Part shown: positions 7,149 through 28,004 of the stretch, one piece after another
How the letters are laid out: the number at the start of each line of letters is the position of its first letter
Numbering within the stretch: position 1 is the stretch's first letter
Origin: a virus
DNA: 29,895 nucleotides
Reading direction: 5' to 3' (one strand)
Virus record (IMG/VR): IMGVR_UViG_3300017746_000089
Made by a program: the position numbers and the translations under genes
The notes under the pieces: model-generated
The model's database searches: none
Told to the model about the DNA's origin: nothing
What the model saw: only the letters and a program-made list of their open reading frames with translations

Positions 7149-7157
7149 TATATAACG
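7149..7157 (-). promoter_or_regulatory. CGTTATATA motif, copy A (minus strand: TTTACGTTATATAG TTG ATG)
   Basis: tatataacg on the + strand. Lies 1 nt from TTG and 4 nt from the ATG of 6716-7144, and immediately downstream of a terminator. Confidence 0.6.
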
Positions 7158-7191
7158 TAAATAATTACCTAATTTGTAGAAATTATATTGT

Positions 7192-7218
7192 AAAAAAAAA
7201 GCACCCTATAAAGGATGC
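7192..7218 (-). terminator. Intrinsic terminator after 7243-7764
   Basis: Minus-strand GCATCC-TTTATA-GGGTGC hairpin followed by T9. One stem position is a G-U pair on the minus transcript only (A-C mismatch on the + strand). Confidence 0.7.
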
Positions 7219-7242
7219 TTAATTTATTAACTAAAATTAAAA

Positions 7243-7764
7243 CTATGCAGTTGGATCTATTTGTGTTGCATCACCAGTTACTGGTGCATCTAAAAAGTAT
7301 GGTGCAGTTTCTTCCATACCCTCAAAAGTAAGTGTAAAACCACTTAAATCACCTGCTGCTGCTCCCGTTACTACTGTTCCACCCGTACATTCCATTCCAT
7401 TTTCAAACCCACATAAGAAACTATTACCGTAATAATCTTCAACTACAACTTGTGGTCTTGCTACTGCAAGTGTTTGTAGTTCTGCTTGTGTTTTTGCATC
7501 TAAATAAGTTAGTGTTAAGTTTAAAGTTTGAGTATAAAATGTAGTTCCATTTTCTCTACTACTTGTTACAGTAGTTTCTAAAGATGAATTACCCTTTACA
7601 TCAAATTCAAACCACGTTGGGCTACCAGTTATTGTTGCTTCTTTAGTTGTACTATCTACTGTTACAGCAGTTATACCACCATAATCAGCAAAATATACTC
7701 TTTTAATACCCCCAAACGCTGATTTGCAAGGTATTTTTCTTCCAGTTGTTAATAAACAAGACAT
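7243..7764 (-). CDS. Abundant virion protein, putative major tail (tube) protein or head decoration protein
   Basis: 173-aa ORF bracketed by two strong terminators right after the capsid gene. Beta-rich sequence pattern (GGIKRVYFADYGGI...VVVEDYYGNSFLCGFENGMECTGGTVVTGAAAGDLSGFTLTFEG) recalls tail-tube families. Confidence 0.4.
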   Translation of the reverse strand: MSCLLTTGRKIPCKSAFGGIKRVYFADYGGITAVTVDSTTKEATITGSPTWFEFDVKGNSSLETTVTSSRENGTTFYTQTLNLTLTYLDAKTQAELQTLAVARPQVVVEDYYGNSFLCGFENGMECTGGTVVTGAAAGDLSGFTLTFEGMEETAPYFLDAPVTGDATQIDPTA

Positions 7765-7779
7765 ATATATATTTTTTTT

Positions 7780-7813
7780 AAAAAAAAAGGGTAAGTAGAT
7801 GACCTACCTACCC
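7780..7813 (-). terminator. Strong intrinsic terminator after the major capsid gene
   Basis: Minus-strand GGGTAGGTAG-GTCAT-CTACTTACCC (10-bp stem) followed by T9. Confidence 0.8.
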
Positions 7814-7834
7814 TAATTTATTGGTTAATTAATT

Positions 7835-8815
7835 TTAAGCGTATTCTACTAAATCTTCAGCAATTCCAAACTGTACTGCTGATGTAAAACGCATTACCAT
7901 TCTTACATTGTTTGAAGCATCTAAATCTGCCATATCCAATACTTTAATAGAATTTGTATCGTTTAACAATCCAGTTCCAAAGTATAGGTTACTTCTTTGT
8001 GCTGCATACATTTTGTTGTCTGACATTCCAGGACATACAAAAATCTTAACACCATTTACAGTTAGTGATCCGTTATTCCACCATTGTGTACCCATATTGT
8101 TTACACCATTTGCACCTAAACCAGCTGCTACAAAACCACCTAATGCTTGTACATAGAATTTAGCTGCTTTTGAACCAATGTATAAGAATAAATCTTCTTT
8201 TCCGTAAAGTGAAGCTGGTATAGCATCTACTACTTTAGATAATTCTGCAATAATATTAGTTGCATCTAAACCACCTGCTACTGCTGCTACTTGCTGACCT
8301 GCTGGTATATCACCTGCTGCTGCTGATGCTGCAATTAGTTTTTCAAACCCATCAAATGAATTGTTAGTACCAGCTGCGGTATCACCTTGCCAAATACAAA
8401 ATTCTGTATTCTGTGCTACTTCTGCTGCTACGTGTGCAATCATAAAATCAGAAAATTTAGGTGGTAATGACTGACCTAAACCATATCCCATTTGTTGTGC
8501 TTCCCAATCGTTCACAAAATCATACTTACATAATTGTAGATTAACTTGTAATTCTACTGGTTGTATAATTCTTTCTGTTAATGTTACAGATGAATTAGGT
8601 GTAAAATCACAACTTGCTGGACTTACTAATGAACCAGTTGCTAATTTTTTTAATACTTCTTTGTAAGCAATATTTGCTTTTACTGTAATACCACCATCAT
8701 CAATAGTTGATGCAGATAGTAAAGCTGCTGCAATATACTCACCAGCAAATTCACCAGCATAAGTTGTAGTGATATTAACTGTAGTTGCAAGATTTGTTTT
8801 TCTTAAATTTGCCAT
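7835..8815 (-). CDS. Major capsid protein
   Basis: 326-aa ORF directly after the acidic scaffold-like gene and before a strong terminator. Composition and length fit an HK97-fold coat protein. Judged by eye only. Confidence 0.7.
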   Translation of the reverse strand: MANLRKTNLATTVNITTTYAGEFAGEYIAAALLSASTIDDGGITVKANIAYKEVLKKLATGSLVSPASCDFTPNSSVTLTERIIQPVELQVNLQLCKYDFVNDWEAQQMGYGLGQSLPPKFSDFMIAHVAAEVAQNTEFCIWQGDTAAGTNNSFDGFEKLIAASAAAGDIPAGQQVAAVAGGLDATNIIAELSKVVDAIPASLYGKEDLFLYIGSKAAKFYVQALGGFVAAGLGANGVNNMGTQWWNNGSLTVNGVKIFVCPGMSDNKMYAAQRSNLYFGTGLLNDTNSIKVLDMADLDASNNVRMVMRFTSAVQFGIAEDLVEYA

Positions 8816-8822
8816 TTTTATT

Positions 8823-9419
8823 TTATTTATTTAATTTATTTAATACTCTATCTAAAGTTGTTGCGAATTTTCCAGTTCCAAACTCTACTTTAGTTTTGTT
8901 AGATTTTGGTGCTGAATTTCTTGTAATTGGTTTTGTTGCAGCAGATAAATCTTCTTTTTTCTTATCTTCTACTTTTTCTTCTTCTTTGTCATCCATTAAA
9001 GAAGAATATTGTTTTTTAAGTTCTTCAATTTCAGATTTTACTTCCTCAATAACTGGTGCAATAACCTCAACTACTGCTTCAACTATTGCTTCAACTTCTG
9101 ATGCAACTTCTTCGGGTACTTCCGTTTCAATAGTTTCTTCTAAATCTTCAGTTTCTTCTTTAGCTGGTACATCATCAGATACATCTCTTACATCTGCAAT
9201 GATACCCTCTTCTTCTACGATCAATAACTTACCATCTTCAAGGATATATTCCCCTACTGGCATTGCTACTTTTTCATCATCGGTAACGATAAATACTTCG
9301 TTCCCTTTTTCTAATGATTCTGTTGTGATAACAGTACCATTCTCTAACTTCATTTCTTCAAGTTTTACCTCGATGTTTAGAAGCGTTTTTATGTCATTTA
9401 ACATTTTGGTTGCTTTCAT
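8823..9419 (-). CDS. Scaffolding protein (acidic)
   Basis: 198 aa, very E/D/K-rich (EETEDLEETIETEVPEEVASEVEAIVEAVVEV...). Positioned between the protease and the capsid gene. Confidence 0.55.
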   Translation of the reverse strand: MKATKMLNDIKTLLNIEVKLEEMKLENGTVITTESLEKGNEVFIVTDDEKVAMPVGEYILEDGKLLIVEEEGIIADVRDVSDDVPAKEETEDLEETIETEVPEEVASEVEAIVEAVVEVIAPVIEEVKSEIEELKKQYSSLMDDKEEEKVEDKKKEDLSAATKPITRNSAPKSNKTKVEFGTGKFATTLDRVLNKLNK

Positions 9420-9425
9420 AATACT

Positions 9426-9434
9426 TATATAACG
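9426..9434 (-). promoter_or_regulatory. CGTTATATA motif, copy B (minus strand: AAATCGTTATATAAGTATT ATG)
   Basis: 6 nt upstream of the scaffold ATG. Embedded in a ~40-nt element shared with copy C (AAACGCAAAA-N14-CGTTATATAA). Confidence 0.6.
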
Positions 9435-9458
9435 ATTTTTAATTTATTTTTTGCGTTT

Positions 9459-9623
9459 TTAGTCTGTTCTTGTTATTACACCTATGCCTTGTGCGTGTAT
9501 AGAACCATCACAACATTCAATAGAATACTTGTTAGTATCCCAACATAAACAAGCACGTGATGAACCAGTAGGTGGTGATGTTCTACTTGGTATAAAGGTT
9601 TTATTTTTGTTGTTTCTTGGCAT
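9459..9623 (-). CDS. Small Cys-rich hypothetical protein (54 aa)
   Basis: Hand translation MPRNNKNKTFIPSRTSPPTGSSRACLCWDTNKYSIECCDGSIHAQGIGVITRTD*. TAATG overlap with the upstream gene. Below the ORF-track size cutoff. Confidence 0.4.
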   Translation of the reverse strand: MPRNNKNKTFIPSRTSPPTGSSRACLCWDTNKYSIECCDGSIHAQGIGVITRTD

Positions 9624-10072
9624 TATCTCCAAAAATCATTAAGACCAACCCAACTTATAATTTCACGATATTTTGCTTTTGCATCACTATTTAATGATGA
9701 TGCGTTGTCCACTCTTTGTTTTATATCATCAAAATCATATAAAATTTCATTTGGATCAATACCTAATTCTTCTGCTTTAGTTTGTAATTCTAATAATGCA
9801 GTTAATAATTTTTCTGCGTATTCTTCTAAATTTGTTGTTTGCCCATTTACAATATAATCATCAATATTATATTTTAAACTTAATTCAGAATAAGCATCCA
9901 TAATTTCATCACCCCATTCATAAGCTAAATATGATGCTTCTGATTCAGCTTGTTCAAAACTATCTAATTCATTATTAATATCATCAACAAGTGATAAATC
10001 AACTTTATGCTTTTTTAAATCTACCTTTTTATTAGGCATTTTATCTAATACTTTTTCTAATCTACTTTTCAT
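9623..10072 (-). CDS. Hypothetical protein, paralog of 10076-10405
   Basis: N-terminus MKSRLEKVLDKMPNKKVDLKKHKVDLSLVDDI aligns with MKNNIEKVYGKLPKKKVGLKKHKIELGIVQDI. Also AEELGIDPNEI versus AQDLGVEMPSDT. Confidence 0.6.
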   Translation of the reverse strand: MKSRLEKVLDKMPNKKVDLKKHKVDLSLVDDINNELDSFEQAESEASYLAYEWGDEIMDAYSELSLKYNIDDYIVNGQTTNLEEYAEKLLTALLELQTKAEELGIDPNEILYDFDDIKQRVDNASSLNSDAKAKYREIISWVGLNDFWR

Positions 10073-10075
10073 TTT

Positions 10076-10405
10076 TTATTTATTTAATTTATCTTGTGCA
10101 AATCCTATAAAGTTATTAACCCTTTCAAATAATCTTTGTGTATCACTTGGCATTTCTACTCCTAAATCTTGTGCTTGTGAATATGCTTCATTAATAAGTT
10201 CTTCTGCTCTTAATAAAGTTTGTAAAGAATTTTCATATTCACCTAATGCTCTATCTTCCAAAGATCCAGCAGTTGAAAATTGTTCTTGTGCTTCGCTAAA
10301 TATTTGTATTATATCTTGTACAATACCTAATTCAATTTTATGTTTTTTTAAACCTACTTTTTTCTTTGGTAATTTTCCGTAAACCTTTTCAATGTTATTT
10401 TTCAT
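10076..10405 (-). CDS. Hypothetical protein, paralog of 9623-10072
   Basis: 109-aa ORF with a shared basic N-terminal ~32 aa and a shared C-terminal helix with the downstream gene. Confidence 0.6.
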   Translation of the reverse strand: MKNNIEKVYGKLPKKKVGLKKHKIELGIVQDIIQIFSEAQEQFSTAGSLEDRALGEYENSLQTLLRAEELINEAYSQAQDLGVEMPSDTQRLFERVNNFIGFAQDKLNK

Positions 10406-11003
10406 TGGTCAATATATTTATGATTTTATTTAATGTTTCTTGATCACTTTTATCTTTTGAATACTCCTCTTTAATTTTGTCATTAGGTGCTTCCATTTTG
10501 TCTGCAAAATACCCCTCAATAGAAAAACCTTTAACTTTATTTGTCTTAACATACTCTTGCCATATTTCAGCGTTATTAACTTTTACCGCACCCATCCAAG
10601 TACCTACTGGTACATTAAGTCCGTATTTTCTTGATTTGTCTTGTACCTCATCTTCTACTAACCAGCTTTCAACAAGTGTTAAACCACTTAAAGTTTCTGC
10701 GTGTTCTAATGTACTATTGTTTTGATAGCCATTCTTTAAATACATTTGTGATGCTTTTTGTACTGTATCTTTAGAAAAGTAAATGTAATATTCACCCTCT
10801 GCACCATTTCTATAAATAGGTTTATTAGGTATTAACAAAGCACCCATTAAGATTTTTTTATCACCATCTACTTGTGCTAATTTTATTTCTTGGTCTTTTA
10901 AAGCAATAAAGTCTGATTCAATAGCTGGACTTTCTACAATAGATATTGCTTCTACTCCTGCATCTTCTTGATCTTCATCTAAAATAAGTTCTATTATTTT
11001 CAT
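10395..11003 (-). CDS. XkdF-like putative prohead serine protease (Peptidase_S78_2-like)
   Basis: LEHAETLSGLTLVESWLVEDE...VPVGTWMGAVKVNNAEIWQEYVKTNKVKGFSIEGYF matches the XkdF pattern. Located upstream of scaffold and capsid. Confidence 0.7.
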   Translation of the reverse strand: MKIIELILDEDQEDAGVEAISIVESPAIESDFIALKDQEIKLAQVDGDKKILMGALLIPNKPIYRNGAEGEYYIYFSKDTVQKASQMYLKNGYQNNSTLEHAETLSGLTLVESWLVEDEVQDKSRKYGLNVPVGTWMGAVKVNNAEIWQEYVKTNKVKGFSIEGYFADKMEAPNDKIKEEYSKDKSDQETLNKIINILTNEK

Positions 11004-11006
11004 AAT

Positions 11007-11015
11007 TATATAACG
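11007..11015 (-). promoter_or_regulatory. CGTTATATA motif, copy C (minus strand: AAAACGTTATATAATT ATG)
   Basis: 3 nt upstream of the protease ATG. Shares extended upstream similarity with copy B. Confidence 0.6.
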
Positions 11016-11037
11016 TTTTTAATTTTAAATTTTGCGT

Positions 11038-12792
11038 TTATCCTATACTTGCACCCTCAATTATATTTCTATCCATTTCTTGTGCAGTAGAAACATCACT
11101 TGCAACTACGTATGCTTTTGTTGGTTGTTGTGTTTGACCACCTATTGCATCTGCTAATTGATTTGTACCACTTGCACCTACTATATTAAAAGCTGGGGGT
11201 AAACTTTCAGTTGTTGGTGCTGAACCACCACCACCACCACCACCACTTGGTACAGTTCCTTTGTTACCTCTACCACTTGGATCAACTGATTTTATTGCTG
11301 CTATGTTTTTTAATGCTGCTGCACCAGCTAAACCAGCTTGTATAAATGGATATGCTGGAAATACTTTTGTAATCGGAGAATCTTGTGCAGTTGTAAAAGC
11401 GTTCATTACACCTAAAGTTCCACTTATTGTTGCACTTGCTAATGCCATAGCTTTACCAGTTTTACTGTCTTTACCAGCAATATCAGCTAATAAATCAAAA
11501 CCTTGTTTTGCCATATTAAGTTTTGCATTTAAAACTTTTCTATCTAATTCTTCATCTTGTGCAGCAGTTTTGTCTTTTACACCTTGCTTTAATAATTCAT
11601 AATGTTCAACAATAGCTAATTTTTGTGCTTCGGTTGCATCTAACCTTTCTAATTCTGCTATTGTTTCTGACTGTTCTTTTTCAAGTTTTGCAATTTCACG
11701 TTCTTCATCAGTTAAAACCTTAAATTCATCTTGAATATCTTTTATACCTTGTAAACGTTCTAATTCTTTTTGTTCTGCTTGTAATCTATAAGTTTCATTT
11801 ATAGCATCTTCTTCTGCTATTCTTTGTGCTTCAAGTTCAGCAGTATCAAGCCCAAATTGTTTTGCTTTTTCTATTAAACCAAAATATTTATCACTTACTG
11901 CATTTAGTTCTTGTGTTTGTTTATCAAGTTGTTTTTGAAAATAAGCATCTTCAAGTTTAGCAATTTCTTCTATTGTTTTTGCTTTTTCTTCAATAGCTGG
12001 ATCAGTTTCAACTTTTTCTTCTTTTTTCTTTTTAGCTGGTGGGTTTAGTAATAAATCAATATCTAATTCTTCACCTTTTAGTTTGTTAAGTTTTCCTTGT
12101 AAATCATTTATTTTCTTTTGTTCTTCTGTACTTATTGAAGCAGTTTTTGCAAGTAATTCTACTTGTTTACTATAACCAAATAAAAACCCTTGAAAACCAG
12201 CGTTTATTTTATCCCAAGTTGTAACCTCTTTTGCTGCTGCTTGTTCTTGTAGTAATTGCGTTTCAAGTATTTTAATTGACCTTTTTAATATAGCATCTTT
12301 TGCTAATAATATTTGTTTTTGTTTTTCAAGATTTTCAGAATTAGATATACCCCTTTGTTCGTTGTATTTTTGTTCTTTTTGTAAAAGTGATAATTGGCTA
12401 TCAACTGATGTTAAAAGTTCATCATTTAATGCTTTTTGTCTTTCTAAATCTTTATTTATAAAACCTAATGCTTCACCTATTTCATCCCAATATTCAACAA
12501 CTAAACCTAAAGCAACAACTAAAGCACCAATACCAGTTGATATTAACGCACTTTTCATTGCCTTACCACTTAACTTTGCTGCTTTACCTACTGCAACTAA
12601 TTTAGATGCTAAACCACCAGTATATCTATCTAATGCCCTTACTGCTTCATTGCCAATTTGCATACCAGCAGATAAATCTTTACCAGCTTTTCTTGCACTT
12701 CTACCTGTATCTTTAACTTTTTTATTTAAGTCATCAACATTTTTTTGTGCTTCTTTAGTATTTGCTTGTAATTCTAAATTTATTTTTTCCAT
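11038..12792 (-). CDS. Tape-measure-like protein (alternatively an internal/ejection protein)
   Basis: 584 aa with long coiled-coil regions, a TM-like segment ISTGIGALVVALGLVV, a Gly-rich C-terminus (GGGGGGGS) and AGKDSKTGKAMALASATISGTLGV-type motifs seen in tape-measure proteins. Confidence 0.6.
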   Translation of the reverse strand: MEKINLELQANTKEAQKNVDDLNKKVKDTGRSARKAGKDLSAGMQIGNEAVRALDRYTGGLASKLVAVGKAAKLSGKAMKSALISTGIGALVVALGLVVEYWDEIGEALGFINKDLERQKALNDELLTSVDSQLSLLQKEQKYNEQRGISNSENLEKQKQILLAKDAILKRSIKILETQLLQEQAAAKEVTTWDKINAGFQGFLFGYSKQVELLAKTASISTEEQKKINDLQGKLNKLKGEELDIDLLLNPPAKKKKEEKVETDPAIEEKAKTIEEIAKLEDAYFQKQLDKQTQELNAVSDKYFGLIEKAKQFGLDTAELEAQRIAEEDAINETYRLQAEQKELERLQGIKDIQDEFKVLTDEEREIAKLEKEQSETIAELERLDATEAQKLAIVEHYELLKQGVKDKTAAQDEELDRKVLNAKLNMAKQGFDLLADIAGKDSKTGKAMALASATISGTLGVMNAFTTAQDSPITKVFPAYPFIQAGLAGAAALKNIAAIKSVDPSGRGNKGTVPSGGGGGGGSAPTTESLPPAFNIVGASGTNQLADAIGGQTQQPTKAYVVASDVSTAQEMDRNIIEGASIG

Positions 12793-12917
12793 ACTTGTTT
12801 CATTAGTTTGTAGCTATTCTTTACTGATGTAGGTAAAGCATATTTACCTTGTGCAATACGTATGTTTTCCGTTTCACCTTTTACTTCTTGTAATAAGTCT
12901 AATATATTTTTTATCAT
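12780..12917 (-). CDS. Small hypothetical protein (45 aa)
   Basis: Hand translation MIKNILDLLQEVKGETENIRIAQGKYALPTSVKNSYKLMKQVWKK*. ATGA overlap upstream; 13-nt overlap with the tape-measure-like gene start. Confidence 0.35.
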   Translation of the reverse strand: MIKNILDLLQEVKGETENIRIAQGKYALPTSVKNSYKLMKQVWKK

Positions 12918-15079
12918 AAATCAGTATTTAATAATTCAAATTCTGTTTTACCAGTTGTTAGGTTTGTAGTCATTGAATTTATTTTGTAATATTTTTGCCC
13001 TATTTCTATTCTATCATATAATTGTAAACTACTAAATATTTTATATGGTAGGTATGCAGTAACTTTTGTTAATCTTCTTGCTGGGCTAAACACTTCGTTA
13101 ATATAATTACTATATTGTGTTTGAAATAAAGTATCAGTAAAAGCAACAGAATCAGTAGCACTATTAGCAAGATATTCATTAACATAATTATCAAAATGTA
13201 TGTTTACTTTACTTGTACTTGAATCAATATCTTTACTATTCATAGGGATATGGTAATTATTAATTACAGTTCTATTACCTGCTAAATCTCTAATTGTTAT
13301 ATTAGTACCACTTGCTATTCTATATTTATAAAATATTAATGGTTCACCAATATAAGATTCTTGGTTATCATCTACAAAATAGCCATATTGAATATCAGTA
13401 TTTGAACCATTATTTTGATCAACTAACCTTTCATACATAACGTGTTCAAAAGGTATTTCTATTTTATATTCTGTACTTGGTGTATCGTAAACATTCCCAC
13501 CTAAAGAATAACTACTTGAACCCCAAACCTTATTGTTTAACTGATTAAATTGTTGTGCTAAAAATGTCTTAACACCTTTGTAAGTAAAATTTACTTTAGA
13601 AAAAGGTAAGGCAATATCAACTGCTGATTTTGTTACATCTAAATATTCATCAATATTAATTGGTATGACTTGCCCTTGTAATGTTGGTGCTTTATCATAA
13701 AATTCATCTAAAGGCTGCACTACAATAATATCATTTTCTACGTATGCAGTAAGATTAAACATTTGAAATAAACCAGTTAGAAAATCTATAATTTTCATTT
13801 TAGGTATTTGCTCTAATATATTAAATTCTATATCTAAATTTGTAGTAAACGCACTTACATTTTTGTATATATATATAGAGGTTATTGTTTGAATTGGATT
13901 TGGGAATGTATTATATATAATCGCTATTGATTTAACATACCATTCTATACCACCATTAGCAGCAAATTCAATAGTTGATGCACAAGCTATCTGTACAGCA
14001 TACAAACCCATATTATTTAAATCATCACCAAAATTTATAATTTGTGTTCCAGTTTGTTCAACAAAACCCCCTACTTCTTCACTACCATTAGCTAAATTAA
14101 AAACCTTTACACTATAAGGTACGTTTGATGTTAAAAGTGTTGGGGTTAATGTTAATATAACTTCTTGAAAATAAGTATTTCCATTGGGTATTTCTTGTGG
14201 ATAATTTAATTGTAACCTTAAATAACCATCTTGTATAATAGAATTACGAGGGTTATTACCAAATGATTCATACCAATCAGTAAATGTATTATAAACTCTT
14301 TCAACTTGTTCTTCTGCTGCTATTTCACCTTTTTTTCTATGTAACCACATATACAAATTATAAAAATCTGTATTTGATGTATCATTAAAAAAATCATCTG
14401 AAAACGTTATATCTGGGTATTGTAATTCTATTGCTGATATTATAGCTTGTAATCTTAAAGCATATTTGAATTGTGTAAATTTAAGACCATTATTAGCAAA
14501 CCCAGCTCGATAGTATAAATTTCCATCATCAGGTACATTTGAAGCACTATCATAAGTTGCTCTATCTGTATGCGTAATTAATGGTACAATCAAATTACCT
14601 AAATACTCATTTTGCATTGCTGCTAAAACTGTACTATAATTATAATCAGTATCTAATATACTTAACTCCGTTAAATTACTTAATTGATCATCACCTAAAA
14701 TATCTTTTAAATTAACTGTATTGCCATAAAAAGTTATCTTATATGTATGTGGTACGTTGTTTTTTAAATCAACTCCAGTTAATGCTATTTTGCCTTTTTT
14801 AAATGGTATATCGTTTAATTCTAATGAAGCATTTACTTTTACCCTTGCATCAAAACCATTTACAATATCATAGTTATAGTAATGGTCAAATATTTTATTA
14901 TTTTTTTTTGAAGCTGGTAATGCAAAGGTTTTAGTAAATTCAGTAAAGATTTTTTTTAAGTCTTTTACGTTCTGTATCGTTTGTGTAAAAGATACAGATT
15001 CATCTTTGAATTGGTCTACTCTTTCATCTTCTGTATAAACTGATACATTACCTATGTATAAAACTAACTTTTGTTGCAT
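12914..15079 (-). CDS. Large tail/baseplate-type structural protein
   Basis: 721-aa ORF in the tail-gene block. Stop-start overlaps on both sides. No catalytic motif recognised. Confidence 0.4.
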   Translation of the reverse strand: MQQKLVLYIGNVSVYTEDERVDQFKDESVSFTQTIQNVKDLKKIFTEFTKTFALPASKKNNKIFDHYYNYDIVNGFDARVKVNASLELNDIPFKKGKIALTGVDLKNNVPHTYKITFYGNTVNLKDILGDDQLSNLTELSILDTDYNYSTVLAAMQNEYLGNLIVPLITHTDRATYDSASNVPDDGNLYYRAGFANNGLKFTQFKYALRLQAIISAIELQYPDITFSDDFFNDTSNTDFYNLYMWLHRKKGEIAAEEQVERVYNTFTDWYESFGNNPRNSIIQDGYLRLQLNYPQEIPNGNTYFQEVILTLTPTLLTSNVPYSVKVFNLANGSEEVGGFVEQTGTQIINFGDDLNNMGLYAVQIACASTIEFAANGGIEWYVKSIAIIYNTFPNPIQTITSIYIYKNVSAFTTNLDIEFNILEQIPKMKIIDFLTGLFQMFNLTAYVENDIIVVQPLDEFYDKAPTLQGQVIPINIDEYLDVTKSAVDIALPFSKVNFTYKGVKTFLAQQFNQLNNKVWGSSSYSLGGNVYDTPSTEYKIEIPFEHVMYERLVDQNNGSNTDIQYGYFVDDNQESYIGEPLIFYKYRIASGTNITIRDLAGNRTVINNYHIPMNSKDIDSSTSKVNIHFDNYVNEYLANSATDSVAFTDTLFQTQYSNYINEVFSPARRLTKVTAYLPYKIFSSLQLYDRIEIGQKYYKINSMTTNLTTGKTEFELLNTDL

Positions 15080-16077
15080 TATCTAATGTTGTTTATATAA
15101 TCAAATGCTTCTTCAAAATCAATAGTGTATTCTATTAATCTATCATTAACAGATGTTTTAAATTGTATAGATGATTTTTTTACTTTTACTGGTATAACTT
15201 CATCAGCACCACTAACTTTATTTATTCTTTCATACCAAACGTACTCACTTAATAAAAGTTCTTCAAAGAAATTATTAGCACCTTGTGGATAGTAACCACT
15301 ACTTAAAGTAAATGTTTGTTTAGCAGTTGTGTTAAATGTTTTGTTTGGTGCATCAGAAATAGAATAAGTAGCTGGGTTATTTGTATTTGGATATGTCAAT
15401 ACATTTGCTTTGTAACCCTCGTTTTGTCTTGCAAGTGTTTTTGTTTCTTTTAAGAAAAACCATAAGTCTTGCTGCACCCCATAACGATTAATAAATATAA
15501 TTTTTTTACCACTTCCATATTTAGTACATTCTATTCGTTTTATAGTTGATGGATATGTACCACCTATTGCAGTTGATCCTTGTGCAAAACTAATTACTTG
15601 TATTCCACTACCTAAAGTTTCGGGTACTTTGCCAGTAAAAGCAGAAACACCAGCTACACTTTTAGGATAGTATAATTGTACTTCGTTTGTATCTGGGTTT
15701 TTAGAAATTAAATAATTAGCTGTTGGTAGGGTTGGGTTGGTGTTTTCTTCATAATATCCGTAACCCTCAAAACCTTTGTCTACAAATGATGTTACAGAAC
15801 CAACTACTGAACCAGTAGCATTTAAACCACTATAATTTGTTAGTGTTGTAGTTATTGAAATTTCTTGTGGTACGTATGTTGAATCATAATATATATCTAA
15901 ATAATCTCTTGCAAGTTCTGATATATCAAAATTTACAGTTGTGCTTTTTCTTACGTTTTTTATTAATGTATATCTTGAAATACTATCAATAGTAATTTCA
16001 CATAGTGTTGAAGCTACACCACTAACTGGTATTTCTTTATATTTAAATTGTGGACTTCTTAAAGCTAATCTTGGCAT
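15079..16077 (-). CDS. Tail structural protein (hypothetical)
   Basis: 332-aa ORF translationally coupled to the 721-aa gene. Function not recognisable by eye. Confidence 0.35.
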   Translation of the reverse strand: MPRLALRSPQFKYKEIPVSGVASTLCEITIDSISRYTLIKNVRKSTTVNFDISELARDYLDIYYDSTYVPQEISITTTLTNYSGLNATGSVVGSVTSFVDKGFEGYGYYEENTNPTLPTANYLISKNPDTNEVQLYYPKSVAGVSAFTGKVPETLGSGIQVISFAQGSTAIGGTYPSTIKRIECTKYGSGKKIIFINRYGVQQDLWFFLKETKTLARQNEGYKANVLTYPNTNNPATYSISDAPNKTFNTTAKQTFTLSSGYYPQGANNFFEELLLSEYVWYERINKVSGADEVIPVKVKKSSIQFKTSVNDRLIEYTIDFEEAFDYINNIR

Positions 16078-16080
16078 ATC

Positions 16081-16620
16081 TTATTTTTTTGCTGCTAATA
16101 CTATTGCATATTCTACATCTAATGCAAATGCTTCTTGTAATTCTTGTGGTAACTTTTCAAAACCCATTTCAAATGATTTGGTAAAAAACATAGTTGCCTT
16201 AATTCCTTTTTTCTTTATACTATCAGCTAATATATAACCCATAGTTTTATACGATCCAAACCTACCCTTTTTATCTCTTGGTTGTAAACCTCTAAACTTT
16301 GCCCACTTTGAAAAAATACCAGTATGGTATTCTAACCCTCTTAACTTACTGCTTGGCTTATAACTAAATGGACTGTTTTTGTTTTCTATGTAATTACTAT
16401 TAACACCCTTAACACCTCTATCTTGAAATTCCCCATAGTCTACCATTTTAAAATCAATAATAAAACCATCATCTGCTTTTTCAAAATCATACTTTAATGA
16501 ATTGTATAATTCGCTTGTGTAGTTTTGGTCTTTTTTAGTTAGCCTTGTTTTTGACTGCTGGATAACATAATCAGAAAATGATTTTAATGCTTTTTGTGTA
16601 TAGATAGTTTTCATTAGCAA
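16081..16620 (-). CDS. Hypothetical neck/head-tail joining protein
   Basis: 179-aa ORF. The YGEFQDRGVKG segment is vaguely HK97 gp10-like. Position-based call. Confidence 0.3.
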   Translation of the reverse strand: MLMKTIYTQKALKSFSDYVIQQSKTRLTKKDQNYTSELYNSLKYDFEKADDGFIIDFKMVDYGEFQDRGVKGVNSNYIENKNSPFSYKPSSKLRGLEYHTGIFSKWAKFRGLQPRDKKGRFGSYKTMGYILADSIKKKGIKATMFFTKSFEMGFEKLPQELQEAFALDVEYAIVLAAKK

Positions 16621-17081
16621 ATAGTTATATCATTGTATATTAATATTTCTATTCCACAAGACCACCCAGCTAACATATTTTCAAACCTATCATAAAAAGG
16701 TTCTAATGATGGGTTACCCTCAAGCTGGTACATATCAGTATGCAGTTGCCCTTTTCTTAAATTTTGAATCAGTTTGTTTAATACGCTTAACTGCGTGTTT
16801 AAAATATCTTGTTCGTTGTTGTTACCTACGAATCTATCAAGTGTTTCTGTTTTGCTTTGATCTACAATATCACAAGCAATTACTGTAATGTTAAATCTTA
16901 ATACTTGTTCTTCTGCTACTACGTTGTTTACTATGATATGACCTAAAGGGAAAATATCTTGTTTGTTTAAATTCAAATTAGAAACATCACCAGTTGAAAC
17001 AGTATTTATATTTGTATCTGCAAGTAGTTGTTCTTTTATTGTTTCGGTTAATTGATAAAAACCTCTTATACCTTGATTCAT
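16614..17081 (-). CDS. Hypothetical neck/tail completion protein
   Basis: 155-aa ORF. ATGA overlap with the stop of the -1 frame ORF 17078-17335. Confidence 0.3.
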   Translation of the reverse strand: MNQGIRGFYQLTETIKEQLLADTNINTVSTGDVSNLNLNKQDIFPLGHIIVNNVVAEEQVLRFNITVIACDIVDQSKTETLDRFVGNNNEQDILNTQLSVLNKLIQNLRKGQLHTDMYQLEGNPSLEPFYDRFENMLAGWSCGIEILIYNDITIC

Positions 17082-17335
17082 CTTTTGAATTTACTTTTAA
17101 TTTGTTTTGATTCTATTTCGTTTTTTTCCTTTACAAATGATAACATCATAAAACATTTATGTACTTCTAATTTGGTGATATCTTCAAGTCTTGTAATATC
17201 CCCATTAGCGAGTGTGTATACTGACTGATACCATCCCCATTTTCTGCTAAAATTTGCTGATGCGTTAAGTTCGTTACCTCCCCCAGTTCCGAATAGTTCA
17301 GAATAGTTTTCGATAAGTCTATCCCTAAATTCCAC
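17078..17335 (-). CDS. -1 frame extension ORF, probably expressed only as a frameshift fusion with 17167-17817
   Basis: No ATG in the first ~60 codons. The frame opens only 13 codons upstream of the T10 run. Its stop is ATGA-coupled to the next gene. Confidence 0.5.
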   Translation of the reverse strand: MEFRDRLIENYSELFGTGGGNELNASANFSRKWGWYQSVYTLANGDITRLEDITKLEVHKCFMMLSFVKEKNEIESKQIKSKFKR

Positions 17336-17817
17336 AAAAAAAAAATTGATGACAAAACTGCATCCATTGGCATAGCTAATAAATTATCACTTGTATCAAC
17401 ATTGTATTCTTTTATTGAGTATCTATCTTTTAATTTGTTTTCTATTGGTCTGTATAATACGTTCATTGTCTTTTCCATATTTTCCCAATCTGCAATGTAA
17501 GTATCTACATCAATATATTCACCTAATGTTAATTCATCTAATTGTGGGTGGAAGCCATATTCAACACTATCAATTTTAAACCGTTGTACCAGCTTTGGTT
17601 TTTGCTCAAACAATGAATTGATCTTGTTTGTAATTTTATCAAAATCTGCCATCTTCAAACGCATAACGTTTTTAAGTTCAATATCACAAAATATTTCAAT
17701 AGCTTTAGCATTTAAAAAATGTGATTCTTCAGTTTGCTTTTGGATATTTAGAAACCTTTTGTATTGCCCTAAAGTAATATCAGATAACTTTGTTGGTATT
17801 TCAATATTAATATTCAT
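17167..17817 (-). CDS. First gene of the tail block; candidate tail assembly chaperone (frame-0 product, 216 aa)
   Basis: Contains the slippery sequence A-TTT-TTT-TTG at codons ~158-161. Overlaps the -1 ORF by 169 nt. Confidence 0.5.
   Translation of the reverse strand: MNINIEIPTKLSDITLGQYKRFLNIQKQTEESHFLNAKAIEIFCDIELKNVMRLKMADFDKITNKINSLFEQKPKLVQRFKIDSVEYGFHPQLDELTLGEYIDVDTYIADWENMEKTMNVLYRPIENKLKDRYSIKEYNVDTSDNLLAMPMDAVLSSIFFLWNLGIDLSKTILNYSELGEVTNLTHQQILAENGDGISQYTHSLMGILQDLKISPN
17336..17345 (-). other. T10 slippery run (U UUU UUU heptamer in frame 0), candidate -1 frameshift or transcriptional slippage site
   Basis: Frame 0 reads ATT TTT TTT TTG TGG. The -1 frame reads AAT TTT TTT TTT GTG GAA. 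Confidence 0.55.
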
Positions 17818-17820
17818 ATC

Positions 17821-17829
17821 TATATAACG
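17821..17829 (-). promoter_or_regulatory. CGTTATATA motif, copy D (minus strand: AATACGTTATATAGAT ATG)
   Basis: 3 nt upstream of the ATG of 17167-17817 and ~35 nt downstream of a terminator. Confidence 0.65.
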
Positions 17830-17864
17830 TATTTATTTAACTATTTTATAGTAGTAAATATAAT

Positions 17865-17891
17865 AAAAAAAAAGCAGCCATTTCTGACTGC
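17865..17891 (-). terminator. Intrinsic terminator ending the small-ORF cassette
   Basis: Minus-strand GCAGTCA-GAAA-TGGCTGC (GAAA tetraloop, one G-U pair) followed by T9. Confidence 0.8.
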
Positions 17892-17919
17892 CCTTTCCTT
17901 TCATAAAAAAAACTAACTA

Positions 17920-18045
17920 CTAAATCATACTTGCTTCAAAACAAGTTCCACAACATACACCTTTATCGGTTTGCATTGCAGCACCACATTCGCTGCATTC
18001 ATATTCTGCTTGTTCGTGTGGGTTTAAAAAATCATCCCAACTCAT
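17920..18045 (-). CDS. Small Cys-rich (zinc-ribbon-like) hypothetical protein (41 aa)
   Basis: Hand translation MSWDDFLNPHEQAEYECSECGAAMQTDKGVCCGTCFEASMI*. ATGA overlap upstream. Confidence 0.4.
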   Translation of the reverse strand: MSWDDFLNPHEQAEYECSECGAAMQTDKGVCCGTCFEASMI

Positions 18046-18173
18046 ATTCCAAAAAGTACTGATGCTAATGTTCTACATACAAAGTAGCACAATGCGAATA
18101 TTAAAAAATACTTTATTAACTTCTTAAAAATCTTTGCTGCTTTTTCAGCATTACTTGGTTTGTCTGTTTTCAT
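18042..18173 (-). CDS. Small membrane protein (43 aa)
   Basis: Hand translation MKTDKPSNAEKAAKIFKKLIKYFLIFALCYFVCRTLASVLFGI*. One hydrophobic helix. Confidence 0.4.
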   Translation of the reverse strand: MKTDKPSNAEKAAKIFKKLIKYFLIFALCYFVCRTLASVLFGI

Positions 18174-18177
18174 TTTG

Positions 18178-18336
18178 TTATATTCTTAAATCGTGAATTT
18201 CTTGTGGTGATAGTGAACTATCATCTACTAAATTCATCACTTTGTTTAAATCATTTATTTTAGTTCCTAAAAGATAGAAAGAACTACCGTAGTGCTTTCC
18301 AAATAATTCGCATAATGTGTTTAAAGATAATTTCAT
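18178..18336 (-). CDS. Small hypothetical protein (52 aa)
   Basis: Hand translation MKLSLNTLCELFGKHYGSSFYLLGTKINDLNKVMNLVDDSSLSPQEIHDLRI*. ATGA overlap upstream. Confidence 0.4.
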   Translation of the reverse strand: MKLSLNTLCELFGKHYGSSFYLLGTKINDLNKVMNLVDDSSLSPQEIHDLRI

Positions 18337-18488
18337 TTTGTTATGTTTTTAATTTGTACTATGTCTACCGTTCCATATTTTCTATGTACGTTTCTTAAAT
18401 ATACTTCAGCACAATCAATCTGTTCTTGATCATTAGAATATAAATAAGTTTTCAGTTGCTCGTTTATTTCTGTTAGTTCTGTTTGCAT
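18333..18488 (-). CDS. Small hypothetical protein (51 aa)
   Basis: Hand translation MQTELTEINEQLKTYLYSNDQEQIDCAEVYLRNVHRKYGTVDIVQIKNITK*. A-rich leader AAAATAAAACAAAATG. Confidence 0.4.
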   Translation of the reverse strand: MQTELTEINEQLKTYLYSNDQEQIDCAEVYLRNVHRKYGTVDIVQIKNITK

Positions 18489-18679
18489 TTTGTTTTATTT
18501 TTTATTTCTAAATACCAATTATATAAAAACTTGGATTGCTCTAAATCAATTATATTTACATCACTTATTTTTTTAGCCTTTTTGTTTTTTGGCATATCTT
18601 CAACACCATCAATTTCATTGTTAATTTCTTCAAGCAAATTATTGTAATCTTTTAAAAACTCTTTTGTTTCTATATTCAT
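18473..18679 (-). CDS. Small hypothetical protein (68 aa)
   Basis: ORF track. Preceded by an early-type leader TTTAAAAACAAACAAACAATG. Confidence 0.5.
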   Translation of the reverse strand: MNIETKEFLKDYNNLLEEINNEIDGVEDMPKNKKAKKISDVNIIDLEQSKFLYNWYLEIKNKTKCKQN

Positions 18680-18696
18680 TGTTTGTTTGTTTTTAA

Positions 18697-18712
18697 ATAT
18701 TGGGTTAAATCA
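18697..18712. repeat. Inverted-repeat arm (atattgggttaaatca)
   Basis: Reverse complement of 18832-18848, apart from one extra G in the partner arm. Confidence 0.85.
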
Positions 18713-18777
18713 CGAACCTACATTTTTGTCAGTTTACTACTTGTGCTAATTTTTTTTAATTCTGTTGGTTTTCTTTA

Positions 18778-18795
18778 GTATCTATATCTGTATCT
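18778..18795. repeat. Three tandem hexamers gtatct-atatct-gtatct
   Basis: Read directly. Lies inside the 119-nt spacer of the inverted repeat, next to an AATTTTTTTTAATT tract (18748-18761). Confidence 0.7.
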
Positions 18796-18831
18796 AATTA
18801 CTAACTCAATTCATTAATCTGCTACCCTCGC

Positions 18832-18848
18832 TGATTTCAACCCAATAT
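18832..18848. repeat. Inverted-repeat arm (tgatttcaacccaatat)
   Basis: Pairs with 18697-18712 (16 bp plus one bulged base). Confidence 0.85.
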
Positions 18849-18893
18849 GTTAAAGAACTTATTTAATTATACTGCAATATACAACTTTTTTAG

Positions 18894-18917
18894 TTATAAA
18901 CAAAATTATTGATAACT
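18894..18917 (-). promoter_or_regulatory. Promoter-like 24-nt element, copy 1 (minus strand: AGTTATCAATAATTTTGTTTATAA)
   Basis: 23/24 identical to 23594-23617. Contains TAATTTTG, which fits the Bacteroidota -7 consensus TAnnTTTG. Lies immediately after the terL stop. Confidence 0.5.
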
Positions 18918-18921
18918 TATT

Positions 18922-20130
18922 TTAAGAAACATAATAAGTTCCCCTATTAGGGTTTTGTAATTGGTATGAAACAGAATACCTTATGGCATCTATAATGTGG
19001 TTAAATTTATCTTGTGGTGTTTTACTTTTCTTTTCTAACCAAGAATAGTTGTTTAGTTCTTTTATTAAGTTGATACTGTTTTCTTCTATTACTAAATCAT
19101 AATCTTGTAATAAAGATATTCCATAGGTTATAGATCCAGCACCTTTAATTGATGCAACAACATTACAACCCTTTGCTTTTATTTCGTGAATTAATCTTGG
19201 TTCAGCACTATCACCAACTATTAAATTGTTTGCAGCGTGTTTTAAGTTCAGTTCAGCTATTTGTGATGTAGTAAGTCCTTTTAAATAAAAACATTCCTTT
19301 AAATAGATTATTTTGTTTGTAGTATCTATGTTGGTTTCTACTAAAGTATTTTCATCATTTGCAAAACCATAATCTTGACCAAAGACTGAAACACCTACTT
19401 TTTTAAATTCACCTATTGACCAATTAGTAAATATAACACCCTCTGCTTTTTCTAACCAACCCCCTAACATTTGATGCTTGTATTTATTCGGTCTACGTAT
19501 TTTAATGCTCTCTATCTGCTCTAAATAACTTTTTGATAGGTTTTCTACATTATCTAAATAAGTAGTGTGTATGTACGTTGTATTGCCTTTTGTGGTATTA
19601 CTGCCAGCTTGTACCCCTTTGTCTTGAAAGAATCTGTTGTATATCCAATGTTCTTTTGTAACTGGGTTTAATATAAGTATAACCCTATTTTTGTTTTTTA
19701 GGTTTCTAACTGATAAATCTATTTTATCAAAGATGTTTTCATCAACAAGTTCTTCTGCTTCATCCATAACCCACGTTGATATATTGGTAAGTGATTTTAG
19801 ATTTGCAGTTTGATCCCCACTTGATGTTTTGATACCTTTAAATATTATCTTACTTCCAGATAGCTTATTTATTATTTCGTTTTTAGTTATATAGAAATGG
19901 TCTTGTAATTCAAGTGTTTCTATTTTGTCTATAAATTCGGGTATAATAGATATGTATGCAGATGATAAAGTAAACCTTGTAAATAGAATTGTATGTCCTG
20001 CTTCAAATGTTAAAAGCAAAAGCAATAGGTTAATAGAATAAGATTTACCCGAACCTCTACCACCAGTTACAATAAAATACCTGGCATCAGATGTTTTTAT
20101 TGGTTCGTACTTTAAGTTTACATCTATCAC
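18922..20130 (-). CDS. terL: Terminase large subunit
   Basis: Walker A GGRGSGKS, Walker B-like VMDEAEEL, C-terminal nuclease-like half with conserved acidic residues. 402 aa; overlaps the terS stop. Confidence 0.9.
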   Translation of the reverse strand: MIDVNLKYEPIKTSDARYFIVTGGRGSGKSYSINLLLLLLTFEAGHTILFTRFTLSSAYISIIPEFIDKIETLELQDHFYITKNEIINKLSGSKIIFKGIKTSSGDQTANLKSLTNISTWVMDEAEELVDENIFDKIDLSVRNLKNKNRVILILNPVTKEHWIYNRFFQDKGVQAGSNTTKGNTTYIHTTYLDNVENLSKSYLEQIESIKIRRPNKYKHQMLGGWLEKAEGVIFTNWSIGEFKKVGVSVFGQDYGFANDENTLVETNIDTTNKIIYLKECFYLKGLTTSQIAELNLKHAANNLIVGDSAEPRLIHEIKAKGCNVVASIKGAGSITYGISLLQDYDLVIEENSINLIKELNNYSWLEKKSKTPQDKFNHIIDAIRYSVSYQLQNPNRGTYYVS

Positions 20131-20417
20131 TTAAACCTTATAATATCTTTAAAGTTTATATTAAAACCCTCACTTGAATTTATATCTACTTTTTCTTTTG
20201 GTTTACCATATCTATAACCAAAGTATAAAGACATTGCACGAGAATCACCTTTGAATATTTGTTTACCTAATGTTTTGATCACCTCATCATTATCAATTAG
20301 GTTATCTAATTTTTCAATTAGTTTTAGTTCATCAGCTTTCTTTGGTCTACCTGCACCCTCTCTTGCACCTCCGTTATTTTTTCTTTTATCCATATTGATA
20401 GTATTTTGTTTATTCAA
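20127..20417 (-). CDS. terS: Terminase small subunit. Start is either TTG 20417 or ATG 20393.
   Basis: The GGAREGAGRPKK N-terminal motif is common in small terminases. Directly upstream of terL and overlapping it. Confidence 0.6.
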   Translation of the reverse strand: MNKQNTINMDKRKNNGGAREGAGRPKKADELKLIEKLDNLIDNDEVIKTLGKQIFKGDSRAMSLYFGYRYGKPKEKVDINSSEGFNINFKDIIRFK

Positions 20418-20418
20418 T

Positions 20419-20427
20419 TATATAACG
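20419..20427 (-). promoter_or_regulatory. CGTTATATA motif, copy E (minus strand: AATACGTTATATAA TTG)
   Basis: 1 nt upstream of TTG 20417 and 25 nt upstream of ATG 20393 of terS. Confidence 0.6.
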
Positions 20428-23545: not shown

Positions 23546-23593
23546 TTTGTTTGTTTTTATAATTAATAATAATCAAATATACTATTAATTAAC

Positions 23594-27248: not shown

Positions 27249-27289
27249 AATTTAAACATAACAAAACAAACTAAAGCAAAGATACTGTT

Positions 27290-27821: not shown

Positions 27822-28004
27822 AATATTTGTTTTTGATTTTTAAAAAAAATGTAATAACTTTGAATTTTTTATAATTTATTATTTTATCTAAATATATCTA
27901 AAAATAAATACCAAAATATATTCTATAACAAATATAAATAAATATAAATATATATCTAAAGAAATATATAATTAATAAAAATGTAATGATTTTGGCAATA
28001 TATT
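27822..28004. other. AT-rich noncoding region with short direct repeats; candidate early promoter region and/or origin
   Basis: About 10% G+C by manual count. Repeats: aaaatgtaat x2, (t)atctaaa x3, tandem aaatataaat-aaatataaat, (g)aatatatt x2. The minus strand contains TATATTTG (TAnnTTTG). Confidence 0.5.

Follow-up and report, generated by a model that had tools for sequence, protein, structure and literature searches.

We analyzed a 29,895-nucleotide stretch of viral DNA (the window; IMG/VR virus record IMGVR_UViG_3300017746_000089) in which a nine-base motif, CGTTATATA, lies beside the starts of late genes. Comparing the two ends of the window revealed a terminal direct repeat of 123 bp (1-123 is identical to 29773-29895), which makes the window a complete genome of 29,772 bp. 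This genome is circular or terminally redundant, and one open reading frame (ORF), which starts at 220 on the minus strand, crosses the genome junction into the endolysin region. All of the genes are on the minus strand. According to PHROGs and Pfam, the late half of the genome encodes the portal, the prohead protease, scaffold-like and capsid proteins, tail proteins, a terS-like protein, and terL, while the early/middle half encodes an endolysin, a holin, NinG, a helicase-like ATPase, an exonuclease, and a DNA-binding protein that resembles domain IV of DnaA. Some of the large ORFs are portal and tail proteins and others, such as 12914-15079 and 639-4067, are unmatched, and no RNA polymerase gene was found by PHROGs or Pfam among the ORFs of the complete genome. 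The regions upstream of the genes are A-rich and lack Shine-Dalgarno sequences.

The host is very probably a member of the Bacteroidota. This is based on kinship of the portal protein to phages P12024S and P12024L of Nonlabens (Flavobacteriaceae), which are the closest cultured phages by portal (40% identity), and on the homologues of the window's sigma-like protein (see below) in bacterial assemblies, which are on short contigs that were binned as Wocania, Saprospiraceae, or Flavobacteriales. A nucleotide search found no cultured phage that is similar to the late region at the DNA level; in searches against cultured phages, only the portal led to P12024S and P12024L.

A first-pass annotation of the window, made from the letters alone, had picked out the motif by eye and had proposed that it was a phage-specific late promoter element. 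An exhaustive count agrees with its list: CGTTATATA occurs five times on the minus (gene) strand and nowhere else on either strand. (We refer to the five sites as P1 to P5; coordinates are in Table 1.) In 100 dinucleotide-preserving shuffles, the mean number of copies was 0.35 and the maximum was 2, so none of the shuffles reached 5. Variants with one mismatch are not enriched (8 additional sites, versus about 12.7 expected), so the motif is all-or-nothing: it is exact or absent. Scanning the window for Rfam families and tRNAs gave no hits, so the motif is not explained by a known RNA element.

All five copies are just upstream of the starts of late genes. Of the positions in the window, about 1% fall 1-7 nt before a start and 3.5% fall within 25 nt; the chance of such a placement is about 2e-9. 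The spacings that had been reported are also correct: 3, 3, and 6 nt to an ATG, and 1 nt to a TTG in the other two cases. Two of the copies, at P1 and P4, sit directly after terminator-like hairpins, as had been noticed at the outset, and transcription must restart there. The gene labels in the first-pass annotation (terS, the first gene of the tail block, the protease, the scaffold, and the gene before the portal) were broadly right, except that the terS-like gene does not start at the TTG. Its conserved start is the ATG at 20393 (MDKRKN...), which is 25 nt past the motif (24-25 nt in relatives), and the TTG is probably unused. We do not uphold a degenerate copy that was described before the portal gene (6725-6732), since these bases encode part of the C-terminus of the preceding gene's product and relatives do not conserve them.

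Conservation and anatomy of the element

To see if the motif is conserved, we used contigs from IMG/VR. More than 600 contigs have a portal of the window's family, and we considered the best 80 (64-98% identity of the portal; 735 kb). Around these portal genes, the gene strand carries 130 copies of CGTTATATA and the opposite strand carries none. Around 80 homologues of the window's sigma-like protein (744 kb), there are 61 copies on the gene strand and 3 on the opposite strand. In contigs whose sigma is 56-70% identical to the window's, the core CGTTATA is still biased by strand (99 versus 31), and only the last two bases of the motif vary.

Because sites that are defined by the motif would make this analysis circular, we also located the orthologues by their conserved protein N-termini alone. 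Among 151 unique upstream regions that were anchored in this way, 140 contain the exact 9-mer, and the other 11 contain CGTTATATT or CGTTATACT, which differ in the last two bases only. CGT is kept in all 151 regions (at motif-defined sites, it is invariant by construction). The motif is thus conserved at the equivalent intergenic sites of hundreds of relatives, as the promoter proposal would have it. At every start-adjacent site, the start codon is ATG and the N-terminus of the ORF is conserved, and when the window is taken together with the portal-flanking loci, this ATG is 3-7 nt past the 9-mer in 134 of 135 sites. The distance can shift within one orthologue by small indels: for the scaffold gene, we found both agtATG and agtattATG after the motif. 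Most of the two-part sites in relatives (81/92; the two parts are described next) are 3-10 kb downstream of the sigma gene. Another 9 are the same late-gene sites on circularly permuted contigs, and the remaining 2, from two divergent contigs, precede the sigma gene by about 2.9 kb.

We then aligned unique sites on the motif (116 at first, and 157 later), with numbering from the C of CGT. The alignment reveals a longer element, with a YAAA box as its upstream half and the 9-mer as its downstream half. The full element is T-R-(C/T)AAA-W-T, 15 nt, CGTTATA(T/c)(A/t), 2 nt, T, and a purine. AAA is present at -18 to -16 in 156 of 157 unique sites. The preceding base, at -19, is C in 108 sites and T in 40, or one of the two in 148/157 sites. 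This box is flanked by T-R on its 5' side and W-T on its 3' side. At all of the aligned sites, the spacer from the YAAA box to CGT is 15 nt (or 18 nt from the C at -19 to the C at 0). So the first-pass annotation found a genuine 9-mer, but it missed the YAAA box, the fixed 15-nt spacer, and the T/purine pair that lies 2-3 nt past the 9-mer.

The T/purine pair is informative about where transcription begins. At +11/+12, T-A is present in all 28 sites with the ATG 6 or 7 nt past the motif, and T-G is present in all 19 terS sites, where the ATG is 24-25 nt away. Since the pair is kept at sites with a distant ATG, it is not derived from the ATG. At promoters for extracytoplasmic function (ECF) sigma factors, position -1 is described as a pyrimidine and +1 as a purine, with A as the start at leaderless promoters (bioRxiv 10.1101/2020.06.23.168245). 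Since transcription starts usually show such a pyrimidine/purine pair, we place the likely start 12 nt past the C of CGT. With this numbering, CGTTAT is at -12 to -7 and the YAAA box is at -31 to -28.

The sites in the window fall into two sub-classes, with CAAA before the head and portal units (boxes that begin at 7176, 9453, and 11034) and TAAA before the terS and tail units (17848 and 20446). This split by gene unit is kept in relatives, and it could set a different strength or timing. At P5, the TAAA box overlaps the stop codon of the upstream gene (20444-21319). That gene is PAPS-reductase-like and is present in 2 related loci only, so it is accessory in the window's lineage.

The cultured phage P12024S lacks exact copies of CGTTATATA and has a variant of the element instead: AAAACAAA-N13/14-CGTTAATATA-NN-ATG (or, written another way, CAAA-N13/14-CGTTAATATA-NN-ATG). 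The variant precedes gp01, gp05, gp08, gp41, gp44, and gp45, which all belong to the structural module. CGTTAATA is found 7 times in P12024S, as compared to 2.2 expected, and its five gene-strand copies are all at sites of the variant element. At 6/6 sites, the ATG begins exactly 12 nt from the C. This fixed distance is the strongest single argument for transcription starting on the ATG.

Table 1. Predicted promoters, terminators, and genes of the window (nine-base motif: CGTTATATA)
Feature	Position	Strand	Details
Promoter P1	7145..7178	minus	T-A-CAAA 7178-7173, 15-nt spacer, 9-mer 7157-7149, followed by g TTG ATG; predicted start G 7145; ATG 7144-7142; before 6716-7144 and the portal gene
Promoter P2	9422..9455	minus	CAAA 9453-9450, 9-mer 9434-9426, followed by agtatt ATG; predicted start A 9422; ATG 9419 (3-nt leader); before the scaffold-like and capsid genes
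Promoter P3	11003..11036	minus	CAAA 11034-11031, 9-mer 11015-11007, followed by att ATG; predicted start is the A of ATG 11003 (no leader); before the prohead protease gene
Promoter P4	17817..17850	minus	TAAA 17848-17845, 9-mer 17829-17821, followed by gat ATG; predicted start is the A of ATG 17817; before the first tail-block gene
Promoter P5	20415..20448	minus	TAAA 20446-20443, 9-mer 20427-20419, followed by a TTG...; predicted start G 20415; conserved ATG 20393 (leader ~22 nt); before the terS-like gene and terL
Terminator-like hairpin and T run	7199-7220	minus	upstream of P1, 42 nt away
Terminator-like hairpin	7788-7814	minus	after the capsid gene; ends the P2 unit
Terminator-like hairpin and T run	17865-17900	minus	upstream of P4, 36 nt away
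ECF-type sigma-like protein	24817..25296	minus	159 aa; candidate promoter reader, from its fold and weak profile matches
Portal gene	4659-6719	minus	PHROGs/Pfam
Gene before the portal	6716-7144	minus	first in the P1 unit
Capsid gene	7835-8815	minus	in the P2 unit
Scaffold-like gene	8823-9419	minus	adjoins the capsid gene
Prohead protease	10395-11003	minus	PHROGs/Pfam
First gene of the tail block	17167-17817	minus	downstream of P4
terL	18922-20130	minus	preceded by a small terS-like gene
DnaA-domain-IV-like DNA-binding protein	21476-22087	minus	Bac_DnaA_C, E = 1.3e-10
Host-type -7 box, TATATTTG	27929..27936	minus	in a 301-nt intergenic region upstream of early/middle genes, including the sigma gene
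Further host-type -7 boxes	27277-27284, 23601-23608, 23574-23581, 18901-18908, 246-253	minus	match TAHHTTTG

Candidate readers and a second phage group

The first-pass annotation had proposed to combine the product of 24817-25296 with the host's core RNA polymerase in vitro, and our results point to an ECF-type sigma factor. All eight of its matches in NCBIfam are ECF sigma factors and are aligned nearly end to end, although they are weak and far below the cutoffs. A profile search against PDB found five weak matches, which are again all ECF sigma factors. In the AlphaFold (AF2) model, with a confidence score (pLDDT) of 78, a disordered linker (residues 78-94) connects two helical domains. When we compared this model to PDB with Foldseek, the top 30 or so matches were all ECF sigma factors, with probabilities near 1; the top matches are SigL, SigE, RpoE, AlgU, SigH, and SigW, over 150-170 columns. 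As judged from the model, the 159-aa protein has the ECF-type fold, with sigma2, a linker, and sigma4. ECF sigma factors consist of just these two domains and a short linker, and their length is about 150-200 aa. The CGT-first downstream half of the element also fits the logic of the -10 element of ECF promoters, a resemblance that had been noticed for the core of the motif.

The protein belongs to a large family, with 2150 homologues in metagenome proteins, some of which are named as sigma-24 family by JGI. Sigma70_r2 is the top Pfam family for 18/22 homologues (best E = 1.4e-5). No cultured phage was matched by tblastn with the sigma; a comparison with hhalign indicates homology to gp33 of P12024S, which is annotated as Sigma-70 region 2 (95%, E = 3e-8). 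There is also a weak match to a host family of ECF sigma factors, PG0214/GFO_1088 (E = 0.002). Just downstream of the sigma gene are two genes without a family match, 24016-24228 (70 aa, rich in cysteine and histidine) and 23616-24029 (137 aa). They co-occur with the sigma gene in 120-128 of the 137 sigma-bearing loci, and their products are candidates for sigma co-factors or modifiers of the host's polymerase.

The genome also has host-type boxes. In Bacteroidota, promoters for the primary sigma factor have a -7 element, TAHHTTTG, with or without TTTG at -33 (PMC6847099). The window has 12 gene-strand copies of TAHHTTTG, and 6 of these are in the 9% of the DNA that is intergenic, mostly in the early/middle half. 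TAHHTTTG is absent from all five motif sites, and CGTTATATA is absent from 20.5-29.8 kb, the half that contains the sigma gene. The division of the genome between host-type and motif-type promoters looks like a sigma cascade, in which the host's sigma would lead to the phage's sigma and then to the late genes. (A scan for sigma-70-type promoters found 95 sites, as compared to 123 in shuffles, but is uninformative for a host of this type.)

We noticed several other features of the layout. The intergenic region at 27704-28004 (301 nt, A/T-rich) is full of short TATATTT-type repeats and is a candidate for the main early promoter region, the replication origin, or both. A 17-mer, AATAATTTTGTTTATAA, occurs twice on the minus strand (23594-23610 and 18894-18910), and both copies contain the host-type -7 box TAATTTTG. 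The second copy is in the late region. It precedes three tiny ORFs (18679 down to 18178) with hardly any conservation among relatives, and this segment, which is closed by the terminator at 17900-17865, looks like an inserted cassette with its own transcription. Just upstream of that terminator is an unlisted ORF of 41 aa (17920-18045, minus strand) with CxxC...CCGTC, which is zinc-ribbon-like. Lastly, a conserved gene for a 173-aa protein (7243-7764) is alone between the terminators at 7814-7788 and 7220-7199 and has neither type of promoter upstream. Its expression presumably relies on transcription that partly reads through the terminator after the capsid gene.

To find the element independently of any protein, we scanned IMG/VR for ACAAA-N15-CGTTATATA. 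Most of the hits were from the window's family, but we also found contigs from sample 3300028591, with lengths of 19, 29, 100, and 168 kb and with 43-46% GC (3300028591_000094, which is the 168-kb contig, and _000603, _006230, and _000138; loci L261, L285, L298, L322, and L339-L349). A targeted scan of this second group identified 59-60 sites on both strands. The consensus is an A/T tract, tGTACAAAA, N12, TGCGTTATATA, NN, T, G (that is, GTACAAAA-N12-TGCGTTATATA-NN-TG), so this element matches the window's exactly in its cores and in the CAAA-N15-CGT spacing. The base at +11 is a pyrimidine in 56/59 sites, and the base at +12 is a purine in 57/59. The first ORF begins 28-74 nt or more past the predicted start. 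Being next to an ATG is a feature of the small phages and not of the element.

In the 138 kb that we sampled, the second group has no proteins in common with the window. A search for its sigma factor with an HMM for the window's sigma, with hhalign, and with a regular expression found nothing. Using phmmer with RpoE and SigW queries, we located a 296-aa protein of the sigma70 family, with regions 2-4, which we then confirmed against PDB (the best match is SigA, E = 2.6e-18). Its kinship with the window's sigma family goes no further than the superfamily, and we found no ECF-type sigma in the sampled parts of the second group. Overall, the second group provides independent support for a role of the element in transcription and for a start at +12.

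About a third of the copies in the second group precede ..TGGGAGGGG.. and a run of A, with no ORF, and these copies may drive the expression of short non-coding RNAs. On the 168-kb contig, the gene for the 296-aa sigma (L341:7931-8818, minus strand) is beside a gene for a full IF3, with both IF3_N and IF3_C (L341:9368-9898, minus strand). IF3 discriminates against leaderless mRNAs, which makes a phage IF3 notable. Elsewhere, this contig encodes homologues of SmpB, DnaJ, and Thg1.

Explanations for the element

The explanation that we favor, and that we consider probable though well short of certain, is that the 9-mer is the -10-like half of a two-part late promoter, which would be used by the host's core RNA polymerase together with the phage's ECF-type sigma, with transcription starting about 12 nt past the C. 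The parts of this explanation are not equally secure: the element is very likely a promoter, while the phage's ECF-like sigma is likely to be its reader. What the sequences show is the motif with its two parts, its strand, position, and conservation, the sigma fold, and the two types of promoter in the two halves of the genome; the promoter role, the start position, the reader, and leaderless translation are inferred. The first-pass interpretation of the motif as a promoter is supported to the extent that sequence analysis allows.

In this scheme, the host's polymerase and primary sigma factor would transcribe the early/middle half of the genome, including 24817-25296, from the TAHHTTTG promoters. 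The 159-aa sigma would then join the host's core polymerase. Its sigma4 domain would bind the YAAA box, at about -31 to -28, and its sigma2 domain would bind and open CGTTAT, at about -12 to -7. Transcription would start at the conserved purine that is 12 nt downstream of the C. Since four of the five sites have their ATG 12-16 nt past the C, the geometry predicts mRNAs with leaders of just 0-4 nt for the corresponding units (those of the protease, the scaffold and capsid, the tail block, and the portal). The leader of the terS/terL unit would be A-rich and about 22 nt long.

Several results weigh against this explanation. First, the 159-aa protein has no match in Pfam above the threshold: its match to Sigma70_r2 (E = 0.023) scores 14.9 bits, which is below the cutoff of 24 bits, and region 4 is not matched at all. 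Second, the upstream box is CAAA or TAAA and lacks the conserved AAC that is typical of the -35 element of ECF promoters. Third, the distance to the ATG ranges from 3 to 7 nt within one orthologue, so a fixed start cannot make all of the messages strictly leaderless. At some relatives' sites, the ATG is just 1 nt past the motif; a start at +12 would not suit these sites, and an earlier start would be needed. Fourth, the DnaA-domain-IV-like protein also has a (weak) counterpart in P12024S, so the phyletic pattern does not single out the sigma. Fifth, the same DNA element, with the same cores and spacing, is associated with two classes of phage sigma, one of which is the 296-aa sigma70-family protein, and this suggests a shared reader that might be encoded by the host.

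The last point could be accommodated by a broader proposal, which is speculative and which we would not expect to hold in full. TACAAA-N15-CGTTATATA-NN-Y-R might be a class of promoter in Bacteroidota phages that is common to unrelated lineages, from marine flavophages of 30 kb to phages of at least 168 kb, and that is read by phage sigma factors of different classes whose specificity is either convergent or inherited. In the small phages, this promoter would have become fused to the start codon, and the leaderless structural mRNAs would exploit ribosomes that do not depend on Shine-Dalgarno sequences and thereby favor the phage's messages over the leadered ones of the host late in infection.

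Alternatively, the promoter might be read by an alternative sigma factor of the Bacteroidota host, such as a host ECF, and the phage's sigma-like protein would do something else or would duplicate the host's specificity. We think that this is unlikely. A host reader could account for CAAA-N15-CGTTATATA and the pyrimidine/purine pair being present in unrelated contigs with 43-46% GC, no shared protein in the sampled sequence, and another class of sigma, and the window's sigma does have that weak match to a host family. But each group of phages with the element encodes its own sigma. Also, in both the window's family and P12024S, the element is found at late genes only, and these are downstream of the sigma gene, which is itself behind host-type promoters. 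It would be unusual for a phage to rely on a stress-induced host sigma for all of its structural genes.

It is improbable that the element acts in RNA, as a translation signal near the start codon of transcripts that begin further upstream (similar to the start-associated sequences, or SAS, of Cluster K mycobacteriophages). The near-constant proximity of the ATG does fit this idea. The mRNAs of Bacteroidota, which lack Shine-Dalgarno sequences, rely on an A/U-rich context around the start (PMC6847099), and since P2, P3, and P5 have no upstream terminator, read-through RNAs would carry the motif as a 5' flank. On the other hand, a second invariant box at a fixed distance of 15 nt, with no covariation, is typical of the recognition of DNA by sigma factors. 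The motif and the T/G pair are conserved at terS despite the distance to its ATG, and in the second group the element is still farther from the first ORF. A translation signal also does not explain the two copies that follow terminators, and most of the genes in the window are translated without the motif.

We also give little credence to the 9-mer being the site for a DNA-binding regulator of the phage, such as the DnaA-domain-IV-like protein, which would activate or time late transcription by a holoenzyme with some other specificity. Domain IV of DnaA does target 9-bp boxes, the window's protein contains Bac_DnaA_C (Table 1), and the DnaA-like protein is present in 49 related loci as well as, weakly, in P12024S. 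Besides the two boxes, though, the roughly 45 nt from the terminators to the ATG have no other conserved promoter element and no TAHHTTTG box. In both the window and P12024S, the DnaA-like gene is within a replication and recombination module. Furthermore, the 9-mer is asymmetric, strictly oriented, and placed like a -10 element.

There is hardly any chance that this is a promoter for a single-subunit (T7-like) RNA polymerase of the phage: such promoters do end with TATA and a purine, and the motif ends with TATA followed by A or G and has an A/T-rich stretch before it, but T7-type promoters are contiguous while this element has two parts and a variable spacer, and we rejected this candidate because the genome is complete and none of its ORFs match an RNA polymerase.

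We considered two other types of promoter. A T4-type late promoter (gp55; a lone -10 element, TATAAATA) does not fit because the upstream box is conserved at a fixed spacing. Similarly, a promoter for the host's primary sigma factor does not fit because none of the five sites has TAHHTTTG.

Comparison with known systems

In a text search of the literature, we found no paper on the motif in a phage context or on a comparable late promoter from a phage of Bacteroidota. The promoters of these phages are almost uncharacterized, and their hosts have an unusual primary sigma factor and do not initiate translation via Shine-Dalgarno sequences. The element is a precise and conserved marker for the late transcription units of a very abundant group of marine phages, as seen from the number of portal-bearing contigs in IMG/VR and of sigma homologues in metagenomes. 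It predicts that the most highly expressed genes of these phages are translated from nearly leaderless messages, which are uncommon in the host phylum: in Flavobacterium johnsoniae, the one Flavobacterium studied, 87% of the transcripts that were predicted carry leaders of over 10 nt (mean, 33 nt; PMC6847099). This makes it possible to test directly how the ribosomes of Bacteroidota handle leaderless mRNA. The candidate pair of sigma and promoter can be tested in culture, with P12024S growing on Nonlabens, and a short, stringent, and orthogonal pair of this kind would be useful as a genetic tool for Flavobacteriia.

In its architecture, the element resembles the promoters for bacterial ECF sigma factors, such as the promoter for SigW of B. 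subtilis (ECF, group 4), which is TGAAAC-N16-CGTATA. Both have two parts with a fixed spacer, and in both the downstream part begins with CGT and continues with A/T-rich sequence. The candidate reader is a small protein with sigma2, a linker, and sigma4, and there is a pyrimidine/purine pair at the predicted -1/+1. With core polymerase and the cognate sigma, ECF promoters initiate about 6-8 nt after the -10 element, and in the window's element the pair at +11/+12 is what supports such a start. Bacteria are known to have ECF promoters that are leaderless (bioRxiv 10.1101/2020.06.23.168245). The differences are that the upstream box is (C/T)AAA instead of AAC; that the spacer may differ, as it is 15 nt from the box to the C (13 or 14 in P12024S) or 18 nt from C to C, depending on the register of the -35 contacts, and 16-18 bp in ECF promoters; and that the downstream element is invariant over 7-9 bases. 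Also, unlike in ECF systems, there is no autoregulatory copy of the element before the window's sigma gene, no anti-sigma was seen, and the sigma is encoded by a phage and would drive the expression of structural genes.

The SAS of Cluster K mycobacteriophages have a core that is similar to the Shine-Dalgarno sequence and are thought to act in translation. They are conserved and asymmetric motifs of about 10 bp that are a few bases upstream of many start codons, which is like the 9-mer. But the SAS are not known to have a partner box at a fixed distance, and the window's element keeps its anatomy when the ORF is 25-74 nt away.

The link between the -10 element and the start codon has precedents elsewhere. 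The phages phiYS40 and P23-45 of Thermus reportedly have leaderless transcripts for their middle and late genes. In Deinococcus-Thermus, a -10 region that adjoins the ORF is a known route to leaderless mRNA (PMC12340547). As in the window, these systems have a -10-type element at a fixed distance of a few nucleotides before the ATG, and transcription starts (or, for the window, would start) at or beside the start codon. However, the Thermus cases use the host's primary sigma factor, in hosts whose own genes are often leaderless, while the window's element implies a dedicated phage sigma.

By analogy, the closest characterized phage system is gp36 of the coliphage phiEco32. This protein is a distant homologue of sigma factors, and the middle and late promoters that depend on it contain AATGTA, centred at -11.5 (PMC12276001). 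In both systems, a small phage encodes a divergent sigma that turns (or, for the window, would turn) the host's core polymerase away from host-type early promoters and towards a phage-specific and highly conserved motif in the -10 region. In phiEco32, the consensus is a single element, and a co-factor, gp79, is required. In contrast, the window's element has an upstream box, and we found no homologue of gp79 in the window. The sequences of the two elements differ, as do the host phyla, whose primary sigma factors have different consensus sequences, and the promoters of phiEco32 are not described as being adjacent to start codons. A late promoter that depends on a phage sigma is a known kind of system, of which this element would be a variant.

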